32,000 bases of DNA from Halogeometricum borinquense DSM 11551 (GCF_000172995.2 NC_014729.1:750001-782000), one strand, 5' to 3'. Shown: positions 14,394 through 18,925, counted from the stretch's first letter. Program-made: numbers and translations. The notes: generated by a model from the letters alone, not told the origin.

Positions 14394-16106
14394 TCAGTTA
14401 TCGACTGGATCCGCGTCGAACGCGAACTGCCACGCCGCTCCCTCCCAGTCGTCGGCGTCGGCTGACTCGGGTATCGACGTGTCGCAGTATCCTAACAGCG
14501 AGACATTGCGCTTGTCATCCTTTCCCTGCCAGATGATGGATGCCGTTCCGTCCGGGGGTGCCCCCGACGGGTGTTTGGGCGGCGTCTCGTCCGGTCCGAA
14601 CGAGCCGTACAAACCGCTACTCTCGTCGGATTCCATAACGCCAACTCGTTCGACAGTGCCGACGGCCGGCCCGAACGTGAGACGGATGTGTCGCGGGACG
14701 AGTGCCGATTTTCCACCCAACAGTCCCGTTCGCGTTTGGGTGTCTGTTGTGTCTGCGCCCATCCAGAGCCAGTGTCGGTAGTCGGCTTCGTCGTCGTCCG
14801 GCAGTGTAACTGTCATCTGCATCGCTCGGATGACTCCCGGGCCGGAGACGCGTTCCCACTGGTCTGCGAGTGCTTCGACCATCACCGTCGCACCGTCGAA
14901 CCGACTGGTTTCGTCGTCACTAGTTACCGTCGGCAACTGGTTTTCGACCTGTTGGCTGTTCTCCGTGAGCATGCTGACTGCGCTCTCCTGATCGAACGAG
15001 CGGTCAGCACGCCGACTGCCGCGGATGGCGTACGCCTTCGGCGTGGCGGCTGACACTGCCGCAGTCCCGATAACTGTTGTTCCAACTGTCGCCGCCGCGG
15101 CACGGAGCATGCCTCGCCGTGTTGGCTTCCCTGTCTGGTCCGACTTCGATTGCTCGCGCGACCGCAAATCCGAGAGGACTCGGTCGGCGACGACCGTCGC
15201 GCCGTTTTTGTAGGACGGTGACTCCATCGATGCCTGTGCGGCGGCGACCGCGGCGTCCTCGTCGCCGACGACGGAGAACCCGCGGAGGTCCCGCAGTCGG
15301 CTGGCGACACCCGACTGCTCGTCGGTTGCAGGATATACCACGCAGTGGGTGCCCGCTACTGCGGCGTCCATGACGGTCGAGTACCCGGAGCAAACGACGG
15401 CGTCGGCCGCGCGGAGGTACGGAAGCAGGGAGGGGACCGCTTCCCATCCCTCGGAGCCAACGTTTACAACCGACAGGCCGCGGTCTGTGAGTCGCTCCCC
15501 GACCGATTCGAGGTTGGAGTAATGGCTTGGGACGACGACGACATCGATATCTGCGGGGACGCCATCATCCGATCCGTCGAGGGCAATCGGCGGGACGTGA
15601 ACCGCTTGGTCGGGATCATCGGGTTTCGGTTCCCAGACGGCGGGGTAGAAGAACTCCCGGGAGACGGACAGTTGCAGCGAACAGTGAAACTGCGCGCCGA
15701 GTCGTTCCGTTCGGTCCTCGTAGATGCTCGGCATGTCGTGTTTCACGACGTACTGCGGGATGCCGACTCGGACGGCGGCCATCACGGCAAACATGTCGTC
15801 GGTGACGACGGCGTCCGGGTCGGTTTTGCGAAGCCACTCCACGATTTCGGAGATCCGACGGGTCGTGTCGGGGATACTTCCTGCAAGGAGATCAGTCACC
15901 GTTCCGTCTTGATAATCGCCGATGTAATCGACGGTCGTCGGTTCGAACGCGTCGTATCCGTTCAAATCGACGAACCGGGCGCCCGCTCCACCACCTGCGA
16001 TCTGGATTTCACAGCCCGCGGATTCGAGGGCGCGGGCAATCGCTAGCATCCGCGTCGCGTGTCCCGCACCTTCACAGTAGTGGATGATGGCGATGTTGGA
16101 GGGCAT
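14394..16106 (-). CDS. GT-B glycosyltransferase (MurG/GT1-like) continuous in frame with a Tat-signal-bearing domain of unknown function
   Basis: N-terminus MPSNIAIIHYCEGAGHATRMLAIARAL resembles the glycine/His-rich first loop of GT-B enzymes. The C-terminal lobe includes AADAVVCSGYSTVMDAAVAG. At aa 334-369 there is a full Tat signal (KPTRRGMLRAAAATVGTTVIGTAAVSAATPKAYA), followed by about 210 aa with no recognisable family. I chose the ATG at 16106. The track start at 16130 is a TTG. Confidence 0.7.
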   Translation of the reverse strand: MPSNIAIIHYCEGAGHATRMLAIARALESAGCEIQIAGGGAGARFVDLNGYDAFEPTTVDYIGDYQDGTVTDLLAGSIPDTTRRISEIVEWLRKTDPDAVVTDDMFAVMAAVRVGIPQYVVKHDMPSIYEDRTERLGAQFHCSLQLSVSREFFYPAVWEPKPDDPDQAVHVPPIALDGSDDGVPADIDVVVVPSHYSNLESVGERLTDRGLSVVNVGSEGWEAVPSLLPYLRAADAVVCSGYSTVMDAAVAGTHCVVYPATDEQSGVASRLRDLRGFSVVGDEDAAVAAAQASMESPSYKNGATVVADRVLSDLRSREQSKSDQTGKPTRRGMLRAAAATVGTTVIGTAAVSAATPKAYAIRGSRRADRSFDQESAVSMLTENSQQVENQLPTVTSDDETSRFDGATVMVEALADQWERVSGPGVIRAMQMTVTLPDDDEADYRHWLWMGADTTDTQTRTGLLGGKSALVPRHIRLTFGPAVGTVERVGVMESDESSGLYGSFGPDETPPKHPSGAPPDGTASIIWQGKDDKRNVSLLGYCDTSIPESADADDWEGAAWQFAFDADPVDN

Positions 16107-16139
16107 CGTCTGCCTCATGAATGTGCACAATCATATTCC

Positions 16140-16420
16140 TTCTGACTTTACTGCGGAGATAGGCCCCGTTATTTCGAGATAGGAACAGCTGCGGGCTCTC
16201 TTTTGTGTTGGTCGGAACACTATGACATCCTCCTCGCCGTTCACGGCGAGGTTTCCTCGCGCTGGGGTATCGTTTACCGACCCACGGAGGCAACTTGCGG
16301 GTTCGTATGCTCCTCGTTGGGACGGGGAGAGCGTGATGACTCCAACCATTCGTGGTTGTCCCACTTGAGGCATACAGGCCGTGCCATCGACCGTGTTACC
16401 GTCGTCTGCCGTTGACGAGA
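16140..16420 (-). ncRNA. Predicted TnpB guide RNA (omega/reRNA) scaffold region
   Basis: By analogy with characterised TnpB systems, the guide RNA overlaps the 3' end of tnpB and the IS right end. Downstream of the stop the minus strand has mutually exclusive hairpins GCGAGG-AAA-CCTCGC and CCTCGCCG-TGAA-CGGCGAGG. Boundaries are inferred, not seen. Confidence 0.3.
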
Positions 16421-17608
16421 CACAGAGTGTCTCGTTCGCCAATCAGAACTCAGAGAGTTCTGATGACGTCTCAAGAACGTCTCTGACGCCACGAGGTCAG
16501 CGTGCCCCTCGAAGCCACACGGACACGTCAGCGTATCTCTGTGGCGCGTCGTCTCCTCTGTCGAACCACAGTTGGGACACTCCTGACTCGTCCACGCCTC
16601 CGACCGAACCTCTACCGACATACCGTATTCCTTGGCGGTACACGCCACCCGGTTCACGAACGCCCTGAACGCCCAGAAATTGTGCGTTTTCGCGTTCGTC
16701 TCTACCGACCAGTGCGTTTCCAACACGTCAGTTAACGCCCCAACGTACACCGTCGAAACGCCTTCATCGTAGAGGCGTTCGATGAGGTCACGGGCGAGTG
16801 CGTCTTGGGCGTGGTCACGTCGCTTGGTACGTCGGTCGTACAGGCGTCGGATTCGGTGACTGCTGTATCGACCTTCCTCCAACAGTGATTGGAGTCGGGC
16901 GATTTCTCGTGTCGTCTCGCGGAACCTGTCGAACAGGTCACGTCCTTCGTACAATAGTTGTTGACCGGTTGTGGTTGTGCAGGCGACGAGGTTGTTCGCA
17001 CCAATATCCAGAGCGGCTTCTTCCGAAGCCAGTGGTTGTGCCAGTCGAGAATCATCGACGGTGACTGGCTGAAAGGCCCTGAACGATTGTGCTTGCTCGT
17101 CGTAGAACAACTCCAATCGACCCTGCTTCTCATACTCCGTCCAGTTCGGGTCGCCCCGAACTTCGAGCCGGAGGCGTTCGCGGTGTCCCAACCCGTACTC
17201 GTCTTTCAGGTCTTTGCCGACGAGGATTTCGAGCCGGGAGTATTCACCCCACTCGACCGAGTACGACGTGTTTCGGATGTACGTGCGGAGTTCTCGACCT
17301 TCGTCTGCGTTGCCCCAGTATCCGGGTTTTCCGTTGGCTTCGCCTTTCTTCCTAAGGCTGAAGAACGACTTCCACGCTTCGCGGTTCTTGCGCTCGATTT
17401 GCTGAACCGTGGACGCCCCGAGAACACCGCCGTAGCGACCACGATACTCGCTGATGTCCCACACGTCTCCGTCTGGGTCAGCATAGTGTTCGCGGCGCTC
17501 GTAGTTGATTTCGTTCCAGAGAGCGGCAGAAGCGTCCAACAGGCGTCGAAGCAACTCCTCGTCCTCGTCGGACAGAGGAACCACCTCGAACGTGTTGGCT
17601 CGCTTCAT
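16274..17608 (-). CDS. tnpB: TnpB (IS1341-type, RNA-guided nuclease family, OrfB)
   Basis: The 444-aa product has RuvC-I in [11 protein letters not shown], a zinc finger CPNCG...CPCG, and RuvC-III in [11 protein letters not shown]. The N-terminal [39 protein letters not shown] is typical OrfB_IS605. The RuvC-II glutamate is not obvious by eye ([11 protein letters not shown]). Confidence 0.9.
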
Positions 17609-17633
17609 CGACTACTGATTGCATCGGAACACA

Positions 17634-17640
17634 CATAAAG
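17634..17640. promoter_or_regulatory. Single A/T box (CATAAAG / CTTTATG) placed to serve both tnpB and the divergent RHH ORF
   Basis: This is the only A/T-rich element in the 53-nt gap. It lies 26-32 nt from the tnpB ATG (17608, minus strand) and 22-28 nt from the ATG at 17662 (plus strand). Confidence 0.4.
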
Positions 17641-17661
17641 ATGTGGTTTGTGTGCTACTAT

Positions 17662-17799
17662 ATGGTCGAAGTTCGCATCGAGTTCGATGACGACGAGCAG
17701 TACGAGCGACTGAAGGAACTGAAGAAACACCGTGGATTGACGTGGAAGGGGTTGCTCCTCGAAGGCGAGAAGAAAGTCAGGGAGGATACCCCGGAGTAA
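17662..17799 (+). CDS. Small ribbon-helix-helix (CopG/Arc-like) protein, 45 aa (52 aa if started at 17641)
   Basis: I translated it by hand: MVEVRIEFDDDEQYERLKELKKHRGLTWKGLLLEGEKKVREDTPE. The pattern is a beta-strand (VEVRIEF), helix 1, a G-x-T turn and helix 2, and the composition is acidic. It is too short for the supplied ORF track. Confidence 0.5.
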   Translation: MVEVRIEFDDDEQYERLKELKKHRGLTWKGLLLEGEKKVREDTPE

Positions 17800-17923
17800 G
17801 CGGCGAACGTGGGTTGTGCCGTAGAGTGTCGGATTCACGCCCGCCGTAAACGTCGGGACTCTCTCCTTGATTCAGGTAGCCGAGATATTGGCTGAGTTCG
17901 TGTCGAATGTGCTGGGCGTGCGA

Positions 17924-17950
17924 CCAGGAGTGATCAGCAGTAACTCCTGG
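17924..17950. other. Perfect 8-bp stem-loop followed by TCTTTT
   Basis: The sequence is CCAGGAGT-gatcagcagta-ACTCCTGG, then tcttttgg. It could terminate the RHH transcript or be a subterminal hairpin of the IS left end. Confidence 0.3.
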
Positions 17951-18013: not shown

Positions 18014-18925
18014 TCAATCGACGATTTCAACGTCGAACTTGCTGTGCCAGCGATAGCGCCGGCCACCCCAGACGAAGGTCCGACGTGCGTACGCGTAGGC
18101 CATCAGCGGCACCATGGCGAGTACCGACGGATAGGCGAGCAGTGCGGTCCATCGCCGCTGTCCAAACGCGAGGTAGATGGCTCCGTGCATGGCCGTCAAT
18201 ACTGCCCCCGTACCGAGGGGGAAGCGGATTGAGAAAGCGGTTAACACCAGTAGCAGAACAATATTGACGACCGCCGCTGGCGGATCGTGGTAGCGGACCA
18301 GTTTCATGAATCTGACGTGGCGTTCTAGCGTCTCTCGAACGGATCCGCCCATTTCAACGCGTCGAGCGCGCCGGAGCGTCGTCACGTCGATGTACTCCCC
18401 GAGCAGCCCGTCGTCGCTGATCGTCTGGCGTAGTTCCTTTCGAAAGGCGTCGACGTCGAGGTCCGAGCGCTCAAAGATCACGGCACCGCCCCATATGACG
18501 TCGCCAGCCCAGACACTGAACGTCCCGCCGAACGCGTATCCCGGTTCGAGCAGTATGGAGAGTGGGTCCTGGCCGACGAAGAAGGGGACTTCCGAGACGG
18601 GGCCGTGCGTTTCGTAGTCAGCGTTGAGAGTGGCCAGCCAGTCGTCGGGGTGGTGGAAGTCATCGTCGGTCCAGACGATGCGGTCGTGGCGTGCCCGTTC
18701 CATCCCGACGTCGATGGCGTTGGCCTTGCCCGAACAGCCATCGGGCACGCCCGCGACGACCACTTCGACTCCTGCGGGGAGGCCATCGCGGTCCGCGACA
18801 CGATCCGACTCGTCGTCACAGACCACGAGCAGTTCGTCGTCAGGCCCGAGCTGATCAGCGACTTCCTGGCATGCGGTGGTCCACGTGGTCGTCGGGAGAA
18901 GAACTGTCGTTGGCGGGCGGCCCAT
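18014..18925 (-). CDS. GT2-family (GT21/ceramide-glucosyltransferase-like) integral membrane glycosyltransferase
   Basis: The N-terminal GT-A fold has LLVVCDDESD, GKANAI and WTDDDF (DxD). The C-terminal part has several TM helices. This architecture is typical of lipid-directed GT2 enzymes. Confidence 0.7.
   Translation of the reverse strand: MGRPPTTVLLPTTTWTTACQEVADQLGPDDELLVVCDDESDRVADRDGLPAGVEVVVAGVPDGCSGKANAIDVGMERARHDRIVWTDDDFHHPDDWLATLNADYETHGPVSEVPFFVGQDPLSILLEPGYAFGGTFSVWAGDVIWGGAVIFERSDLDVDAFRKELRQTISDDGLLGEYIDVTTLRRARRVEMGGSVRETLERHVRFMKLVRYHDPPAAVVNIVLLLVLTAFSIRFPLGTGAVLTAMHGAIYLAFGQRRWTALLAYPSVLAMVPLMAYAYARRTFVWGGRRYRWHSKFDVEIVD

Follow-up and report, generated by a model that had tools for sequence, protein, structure and literature searches.

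Between two glycosyltransferase genes, both on the same strand of Halogeometricum borinquense DSM 11551 DNA, there is an insertion sequence of the IS1341 type, in which tnpB and a 45 aa ORF are the only genes and no tnpA is present between the ends. The tnpB protein and its neighbours were found exactly on contig AOHT01000006.1 of this strain. At this locus the window, which is the whole 32,000 nt stretch of DNA that was analysed, contains the following, with positions counted from its first base.

16222 to 17879, minus strand: the whole IS1341-type (TnpB-only IS200/IS605) element, with limits from blastn and its first conserved bases, the probable TAM, counted in.
16274 to 17608, minus strand: tnpB, 444 aa, with a TAA stop codon at 16276-16274.
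17662 to 17799, plus strand: a 45 aa ribbon-helix-helix-like (RHH-like) ORF, inside the element and divergent from tnpB.
14394 to 16106, minus strand: a glycosyltransferase (GT) gene of 570 aa, GT-B/GT1-like in its N-terminal half, with its ATG at 16106.

The end of tnpB at 16274, as given in the initial annotation, is confirmed from the sequence of this ORF. Its product matches the Pfam families OrfB_IS605 (PF01385, 2.4e-26) and Cas12f1-like TNB (PF07282, 4e-13), as well as the NCBIfam guided_TnpB profile, with 138 bits against a cut-off of 100, covering aa 13-380 only; a sequence search of the PDB aligned the C-terminal halves of Cas12f and TnpB only. The RuvC-I Asp201 (D201) and RuvC-III Asp371 (D371) are invariant, but the canonical RuvC-II Glu position is occupied by Gly290 in 63 out of 63 full-length members, so that the canonical D-E-D is not found at the standard positions. 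Glu337 (E337, in VRSEAWTSQ) is invariant and is a candidate for a relocated catalytic residue, on which nuclease activity of this TnpB would depend. This pattern matches the groups with a rearranged catalytic site, where Gly takes the place of the RuvC-II Glu and another Glu close by is predicted to make up for it (Altae-Tran et al., PMC10691335).

The ATG of the small divergent ORF is 53 nt from that of tnpB. A gene call for this ORF is present on the public contig, and its protein is conserved in 53 of 80 related copies of the element, down to approximately 40% identity. Pfam and NCBIfam searches gave no family match. The AF2 model has a strand-like N-terminus and two helices, with a pLDDT of 71, and the best Foldseek matches are to CopG/Arc/VapB/NikR, with E > 1 and not significant.

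The 80 related loci come from a scan with one genome per species across many haloarchaeal genera, and their TnpB proteins have 62-94% amino acid identity. The limits of the element were established by blastn of window positions 18100 to 15900 against these loci, in which the homologous stretch of most copies begins at 17879-17883 and runs to 16220-16223. The best plasmid match (query 72-1729, corresponding to 17879-16222) has limits identical to those of the blastn set. On the right, homology does not end at the tnpB stop codon, which would have spoken against a conserved downstream scaffold; it continues for a further 52 nt and is lost abruptly at 16222, after ...CGGCGAGGAGGATGTCAT. Because the ends are sharp and copy-independent, and the flanks are unrelated in copies from dozens of genera across 80 genomes, this comparison indicates that the lineage is mobile and not domesticated. 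In place of terminal inverted repeats there are subterminal hairpins at both ends, both of which covary across the copies.

17876 to 17879, minus strand: CTAC(C), the first conserved left-end bases and the probable, predicted TAM or target motif.
17840 to 17857, minus strand: left-end subterminal hairpin CCCGACG-TTTA-CGGCGGG, with one A.G mismatch in the H. borinquense copy.
16232 to 16251, minus strand: right-end hairpin (hairpin 2), CCTCGCCG (16251-16244)-TGAA-CGGCGAGG (16239-16232).
16222 to 16231, minus strand: right-end tail AGGAUGUCAU, with which the element ends and in which GTCA is invariant.

At the left junction the conserved block begins CTACCTGAATCAAGGAGAGAGTCCCGCCG-TTCA-CGGCGGG and the 12 bases outside it are unconserved. 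CTAC itself is present in 48 of 49 copies, with no conserved base at positions -1 to -12 outside. In the IS200/IS605 family the target motif is directly 5' of the left end, as is TTAC in IS608, and the exact left boundary and TAM given here are predictions made on this pattern. The left-end stem has compensatory variants across the copies (CCCGCCC/GGGCGGG, CCCAGCC/GGCTGGG, CCCGGCG/CGCCGGG). The right junction reads ...CC[YC]CG[SC]CG-TTCA-CG[SG]CG[RG]GG-AGGATGTCA in every copy, with a T after GTCA in 51 of 56 loci and unrelated sequence thereafter. All related copies retain the 29 nt motif made up of this hairpin and tail, which has a single occurrence in the window and none in shuffles. Most copies have a UUCA tetraloop; in the H. 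borinquense copy it is inverted to UGAA.

The H. borinquense copy itself may now be immobile, because of its left-end hairpin mismatch and its inverted terminal loop (TGAA for TTCA). There is no direct repeat flanking this copy (...TCTCGG on one side, AGTGTT on the other). Look-ups of the exact proteins of both flanking genes in search of an empty site returned H. borinquense contigs only, all of which include the element or stop 20-30 nt into it. A metagenome scan for the left flank, 0-10 nt, and the right flank gave no match.

The initial annotation had proposed an omega (reRNA) scaffold and guide at the 3' end of tnpB, to be sought with a covariance model of the 3' regions of related copies. 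Such a model does recover a conserved scaffold on the minus strand with its right end at 16222. It is, though, mostly within the tnpB coding region: the scaffold and guide were expected to be squeezed into approximately 130 nt, but just 52 nt of the element lie past the stop codon.

16222 to 16417, minus strand: omega RNA (reRNA/sotRNA) scaffold of nine helices and 53 base pairs, from RNAalifold and the covariance model.
16304 to 16376, minus strand: long-range stem, UGUAUGCCU (16376-16368) with GGAGCAUACG (16313-16304), enclosing three inner helices.
16255 to 16290, minus strand: stem of CCUCCGUGGG (16290-16281) with CCCAGCGCGAGG (16266-16255), with the tnpB stop codon in its loop.
16413 to 16469, minus strand: optional in-frame module of 57 nt, bordering the constrained zone on its 5' side and containing two perfect hairpins.

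Alignment A1 comprises the 3'-terminal 194 nt of 52 copies and served to build covariance model R1. RNAalifold on A1 gives a consensus of 194 positions and 53 pairs, nine of which have changes on both sides. The sole significant R1 match in the 32 kb is at 16417-16222, with 220.5 bits, and its 3' limit is exactly the right end of the element, as it is for R1 matches in all copies. In 27 more distant loci held out from the model, R1 gave 27 full-length matches of 88-216 bits at the tnpB 3' end, including copies with only 62-70% protein identity. A wider alignment, A2, has double changes in 20 of the 53 pairs; 95.5% of its cells are paired, versus approximately 40% when the partners are slid by 1-3 columns, and none of 500 shuffles reaches the observed value, with the caveat that A2 was fitted to the R1 model and its pair counts lean towards the structure. 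The compensatory changes seen in A1 are as follows.

Long-range stem: UGUAUGCC / GGAGCAUACG to UGUGCGCC / GGAGCGCACG, 14 copies.
Terminal hairpin: CG to and from UA, 20 copies.
Terminal hairpin: GC to and from CG, 25 copies.
GGGAC / GUCCC: one pair, GC to and from AU, 10 copies.
AACCA / UGGUU to GACCA / UGGUC: 10 copies.

The double changes in the long-range stem, AU to GC and UA to CG in either direction, are present in 14 of the 52 copies in A1 and in 16-18 of 38 in A2. They swap the encoded amino acids, Cys with Arg and His with Arg, and because these long-range compensatory changes alter residues, RNA pairing overrides protein sequence in the tail of tnpB. The stem around the stop codon is invariant in close copies, while in A2 it has UA to GC exchanges in 10 copies and GC to AU exchanges in 11. 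The UGUC of the right-end tail pairs with GGCA at 16410-16407 to form the closing helix of the scaffold.

The same constraint is apparent at the codon level. Across 63 full-length tnpB genes, synonymous-codon entropy is approximately 1.0-1.2 bits in codons 320-375 and falls to 0.23-0.42 bits from around codon 380 to the end, the drop coinciding with the end of the TnpB family profile at aa 380. The scaffold overlaps the last 65 or so codons of tnpB, which are outside the conserved TnpB fold, and this tail is constrained as nucleotide sequence. G.U pairs are frequent on the minus strand only, which suggests an RNA with the same sense as tnpB. It is thus highly probable, on this comparative evidence, that an IS1341-type TnpB element has its omega RNA scaffold at 16222-16417 of the minus strand; expression of the RNA and its binding by TnpB would be expected for such an element. 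The scaffold probably extends up to approximately 16470, through the 57 nt module, which the window shares with about 17 loci and which is missing from most. The hairpins of this module are at 16463-16455/16451-16443 and 16434-16427/16423-16416, its stems covary (GACAC/GTGTC versus GACGC/GCGTC), and RNAfold gives it -35.8 kcal/mol.

Within the 52 nt after the stop codon and on into the flank, the minus strand reads ACGATACCCCAGC GCGAGG AAA CCTCGCCG TGAA CGGCGAGG AGGATGTCAT AGTGTTCC... Two hairpins sharing CCTCGC can be drawn here, as had been noted, at positions correct to within about one base.

16246 to 16260, minus strand: hairpin 1, GCGAGG (16260-16255)-AAA-CCTCGC (16251-16246), not a conserved structure.
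16232 to 16251, minus strand: hairpin 2, as above, which is the last stem of the scaffold.

They had been described as mutually exclusive, which holds for the H. borinquense copy in that either can be drawn; that they are equivalent alternatives does not hold, since only hairpin 2 is conserved. Hairpin 2, which as RNA is CCUCGCCG-UGAA-CGGCGAGG and which is also the subterminal hairpin of the IS right end, has 98.3% of its cells paired, with 45 double-change cells, and none of 500 shuffles reaches the observed value. Hairpin 1 is 79.7% paired, which is the shuffled mean, and has no covariation; of its six pairs, one fails to form in 27 of the 52 copies and another in 31. It is rejected as a conserved structure on these broken pairs and the lack of any covariation, and hairpin 2 emerges from the alignment as the real one. 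The GCGAGG that would be the 5' arm of hairpin 1 owes its invariance to pairing with CCUCCG upstream, in the stem 16290-16281/16266-16255 that covaries in A2. A switch, in which the two hairpins are alternative RNA folds that toggle maturation or termination of the omega RNA, would draw on their being both drawable and mutually exclusive in this copy, but given the loss of pairs from hairpin 1, the commitment of GCGAGG to another stem in the wider set, and the retention of hairpin 2 in 98% of cells, it is extremely improbable.

Directly 3' of the last conserved base is the sequence that would be the guide.

16202 to 16221, minus strand: predicted guide AGTGTTCCGACCAACA(CAAA), 16-20 nt of flank.

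The lengths of 16 nt (16221-16206) and 20 nt (16221-16202) are those of characterised TnpB systems. Beyond GTCAT, 56 copies continue into unrelated sequences, which means that the guide position varies with the flank. There is no second close match to the predicted guide within the window. Homology and covariation thus favour what had been supposed, an omega-type scaffold at the tnpB 3' end with a putative flank-derived guide on the minus strand.

The RNA would most likely arise by processing of the tnpB transcript, in the sense direction, to give an omega RNA of approximately 190-250 nt with nine helices, the last being the right-end hairpin CCUCGCCG-UGAA-CGGCGAGG, then AGGAUGUCAU, and then as guide the 16-20 nt or so beyond 16222 (16221-16202). 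As single-stranded DNA, the same right-end hairpin may be recognised by a Y1 TnpA supplied in trans. Excision would join the left-end CTAC to the flank AGTGTTCC..., making TAM plus target. The predicted empty allele would then be ...ATATCTCGGCTAC joined to AGTGTTCCGACC..., in which the predicted guide target next to the TAM is AGTGTTCCGACCAACACAAA. TnpB with its omega RNA would recognise and cut this empty site, and the element would be restored by homing. In this scheme the guide length, the identity of the TAM, an active nuclease, and the homing role are predictions.

The conserved terminal hairpin might instead act as DNA alone. It would then be the right-end signal of a Y1 transposase, or the terminator of tnpB, with no functional guide RNA and a TnpB that is either inactive or a TldR-like RNA-guided repressor. 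That there is a similar hairpin at the left end is as expected for recognition by TnpA, and that Gly290 replaces the catalytic Glu in all 63 members would be in keeping with the loss of cleavage, but six further helices covary deep within the ORF, as far as 190 nt from the end, where no requirement is known for TnpA. Synonymous sites are likewise frozen over approximately 190 nt, and the G.U pairs are strand-specific. As to the repressor, TldR proteins are nuclease-dead, have no transposon ends, and have a guide aimed at a fixed host promoter. Here both ends have been retained and, in contrast to TldR, the guide position depends on the flank; the sharp ends with unrelated flanks are those of a mobile element. 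Two of the three catalytic residues (D201 and D371) and the alternative E337 are conserved, which fits the rearranged, probably active sites of PMC10691335. This alternative is very improbable, and the omega RNA remains the preferred reading.

Downstream of the guide is the GT gene. Its identical 570 aa protein is annotated in H. borinquense, and there are 321 homologues, many of which, among those with a source name, are called glycosyltransferase. NCBIfam gives weak MJ1255/MGT matches below the cut-off and the Pfam search gives no match. Its long C-terminal half might have been a fusion artefact, but the protein has five orthologues of 567-583 aa with 98-99% coverage. An ancestral synteny of the two glycosyltransferase genes, GT2 and GT, was likewise rejected, the sole orthologue with a visible upstream neighbour having an unrelated one. 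The start at ATG 16106 given in the initial annotation is borne out by the public annotation of 570 aa and by the homologue N-termini (MPS/MSPTIAV.HYxEGAGHATRM), which align at this codon. There are in-frame ATGs at 16118 and 16106, and the former is rejected since the homologues start at the position of the latter; a start at TTG 16130 is rejected since the TGA within GGAATATGA is an in-frame stop at 16133-16131.

16131 to 16145, minus strand: BRE/TATA-like box CAGAAGGAATATGA of GT, at -39 to -26 from the ATG, in the flank.

The TATA-like sequence that had been placed at 16132-16140 is GGAATATGA, at 16139-16131. It was compared between GT and five orthologous genes, three of which are on contigs that hold only 69-230 nt upstream, and five of the six genes (GT and four of the five orthologues) have an A-rich stretch followed by an AT-rich box at -33 to -25. 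In Haladaptatus halobius the upstream neighbour of the orthologue is a divergent amidase gene and the insertion sequence is absent; at the other four loci no opposite-strand upstream neighbour or insertion sequence was called within the contig. The alignments establish both the GT start and the conserved promoter-like box. As the box is kept at the same distance, including in the two visible contexts with unrelated neighbours, GT appears to have its own BRE/TATA-type promoter, in the flank beyond the guide.

It had been suggested that the guide abuts the GT promoter and that GT expression may depend on read-through from the element. The right end of the element is about 60 bases short of the promoter, and the 3' end of a 20 nt guide (16202) is approximately 62 nt from the TATA-like box (16139), so the two do not abut. 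Transcription that crosses the right end into GT, and that GT depends on or is materially driven by, would be favoured by the element having inserted between two same-strand glycosyltransferase genes, with tnpB and GT on one strand and just 116 nt between 16222 and ATG 16106. In this interval the minus strand has no T-run longer than 2, and a promoter and terminator scan of the minus strand from the right end to GT, limited to bacterial-type signals, found nothing. GT does, however, retain its box at -39 to -26, outside the element. The orthologues keep it at the same distance from the ATG, without an insertion sequence upstream where the context is visible, as in Haladaptatus, and the guide stops well ahead of it. 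Characterised TnpB systems also trim their omega RNA at the 3' side down to the protected guide. Some read-through may occur, but dependence of GT on it is quite improbable, and GT is a bystander.

A weaker version, that transcripts from a compact divergent promoter common to tnpB and the RHH-like ORF run on into GT as a second, transposon-controlled transcript, is suggested by the lack of a T-rich terminator between 16222 and 16106, and is unlikely. If true, expression of a surface-glycan gene would be coupled to the element's own regulator, and 3'-extended omega RNA precursors would overlap the GT promoter.

With GT as a bystander that has its own promoter, the value of the locus is mainly in annotation: precise boundaries for a TnpB element widespread in haloarchaea, and a covariation-supported omega RNA structure for a lineage missed by the current Rfam sotRNA families. 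The R1 model and the predicted CTAC motif could guide work on haloarchaeal TnpB with Gly for Glu at RuvC-II.

In Halobacterium salinarum, every IS1341-type tnpB gene has been described as having a sense-overlapping RNA (sotRNA) at its 3' end, and these RNAs have a right-end-like UUCA tetraloop in common with HgcC (Gomes-Filho et al., PMC4615843); the same group now equates sotRNAs with omega RNAs (PMC12558985). A permissive Rfam scan of the locus gave only HgcC and sot0042, with most of each alignment in the terminal hairpin and GAGGAGGUCA-like tail, and both are below the gathering threshold: RF02656 (sot0042) has 15.3 bits (E = 0.47) at 16231-16366, where gathering is 88, and RF00062 (HgcC) has 17.5 bits (E = 0.4) at 16214-16360, where gathering is 50. 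The RNA is like the sotRNAs (RF02656 sot0042, RF02657 sot2652) in being haloarchaeal, sense-overlapping at the 3' end of an IS1341-type tnpB, and terminated by a GC-rich hairpin with a UUCA-type tetraloop and then GGAGGAUGUCA-like bases. It differs from them in the inverted UGAA tetraloop of the H. borinquense copy and in scoring far below the RF02656 gathering threshold. In the case of HgcC the 3' hairpin and GAGGAGGUCA tail align, whereas the parts upstream of the hairpin do not.

Omega RNAs/reRNAs of ISDra2 and related IS200/IS605 elements (PMC8612924, PMC10097598) likewise extend into the 3' end of tnpB, fold into a scaffold that terminates with the right end of the transposon, and take their guide from the flanking DNA; these elements too have subterminal hairpins and no inverted repeats, and the predicted role, cutting of the empty donor site beside the TAM, is the same. 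Unlike ISDra2, the H. borinquense element has no tnpA, carries the small divergent RHH-like gene, has Gly at the canonical RuvC-II Glu position of its TnpB, and has CTAC(C) as its candidate TAM; there is no detectable sequence similarity between the two scaffolds. With IS608 it shares similar imperfect hairpins near both ends, with some 10 nt between the right-end hairpin and the terminus, a short conserved motif at the left boundary, and no visible target site duplication, but it encodes no TnpA and its ends are known from sequence comparison.

Among the TnpB groups of PMC10691335 there are archaeal proteins that have a rearranged site and an adjacent small RHH-like gene, as here, and the RIIr groups share the RuvC-II Glu to Gly change with a compensating Glu. 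In the published RHH/MazE clade the RuvC-III Asp is replaced by His, tnpB is downstream of the RHH/MazE gene, and the loci are non-mobile (PMC10691335). The H. borinquense element, on the other hand, has Asp371 intact, a small gene that is divergent, and a lineage that is clearly mobile. What is present at this locus is an ordinary omega RNA and the right end of a TnpB-only insertion sequence, with no new mechanism, and the comparison with these systems places the RNA as a member of the known sotRNA/omega RNA class from a lineage outside the curated Rfam families.

Within the RNA stem at 16304-16376 (minus strand), compensatory base changes force paired residue changes in the tail of TnpB, as in PVCLKW...EEHT versus PVRLKW...EERT, so that the RNA, rather than the protein, appears to have shaped the last ~65 codons of tnpB, which overlap the omega RNA. 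Several more distant haloarchaeal tnpB lineages, found in the plasmid records H19-H25, match the element only over query positions 1562-1728, which correspond to window 16389-16223. On these matches, no other DNA of the element is as well conserved between lineages as the omega RNA region.

This region also carries palindromic insertions, one of them in the tnpB tail, where the RNA-constrained zone has its 5' edge:

16413-16469, minus strand: 57-nt in-frame module containing two perfect hairpins

The hairpins of this module are of 9 bp and 8 bp, each with a 3 nt loop, and their stems covary across loci. The module is present at the identical site in ~17 of the related haloarchaeal loci, the distant L063, L065, and L069 among them, and is absent from most of the loci that are closer to the window copy. 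Further double-hairpin insertions of ~47 nt, with other sequences, are present in L003 (4350-4430), L004, L010, L016, L044, and L045, and also in L051 and L078. They are inserted into the terminal right-end hairpin, within its loop, or at other places in the omega RNA region, and the covariance model built from the 3' ends of 52 copies matches over its full length despite them. The ~47-nt insertions seem to be small palindromic modules that recur and are tolerated by the scaffold.

There are sequence differences at both ends of the element in the window copy. The window copy has TGAA as its terminal tetraloop (16240-16243, minus strand), as do L024, L051, and L066; nearly all of the other copies have TTCA. 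The two are an exact inversion of the loop, which is the expectation from template switching inside a hairpin. At the left end, the hairpin has an A.G mismatch at 17851-17857 (minus strand), CCCGACG versus CGGCGGG, where most copies are perfectly paired, and the window copy of the element may be decaying. In independent short-read assemblies of H. borinquense, the contigs are interrupted within the element, 20-30 nt from each of its ends (the end of L086 and the start of L092). This points to further occurrences of the end sequences in this genome, as more copies or as miniature derivatives.

Of the genes flanking the element, the downstream glycosyltransferase is 570 aa in length. Five orthologues, 567-583 aa long, match it over 98-99% of its length, and by this comparison its long C-terminal half is not an assembly or frameshift artefact. 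The H. borinquense protein also has a twin-arginine-signal-like stretch, TRRGMLRAAAATVGTTVIGTAAVSAA, mid-protein after the GT-B-like half (window about 15085-15125, minus strand). On the other side of the element, an inverted repeat, CCAGGAGT...ACTCCTGG, is located at 17924-17950 (minus strand), 64 nt downstream of the family-2 glycosyltransferase gene (18014-18925), and may be a 3' structure of that gene.

Two positions in TnpB bear on its catalytic residues:

16739-16741, minus strand: Gly290, at the canonical RuvC-II Glu position; Gly in 63 of 63 family members
16598-16600, minus strand: Glu337, in VRSEAWTSQ; invariant

Glu337 could be the relocated catalytic residue.

The element contains one further small coding sequence:

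17662-17799, plus strand: 45-aa ORF MVEVRIEFDDDEQYERLKELKKHRGLTWKGLLLEGEKKVREDTPE, within the element and divergent from tnpB

The start codons of this ORF and tnpB are 53 nt apart (ATG to ATG). The ORF is kept at the protein level in 53 of the 80 copies, with identity as low as ~40%. Its product has no match in Pfam or NCBIfam searches. In the AF2 model the N-terminus is extended and is followed by two helices. The best Foldseek matches fall exclusively on ribbon-helix-helix proteins (CopG, Arc, VapB, NikR), none of these matches being significant. The product may regulate the element. The published RHH/MazE-TnpB arrangement (PMC10691335) is unlike the layout of the 45-aa ORF and tnpB seen here.
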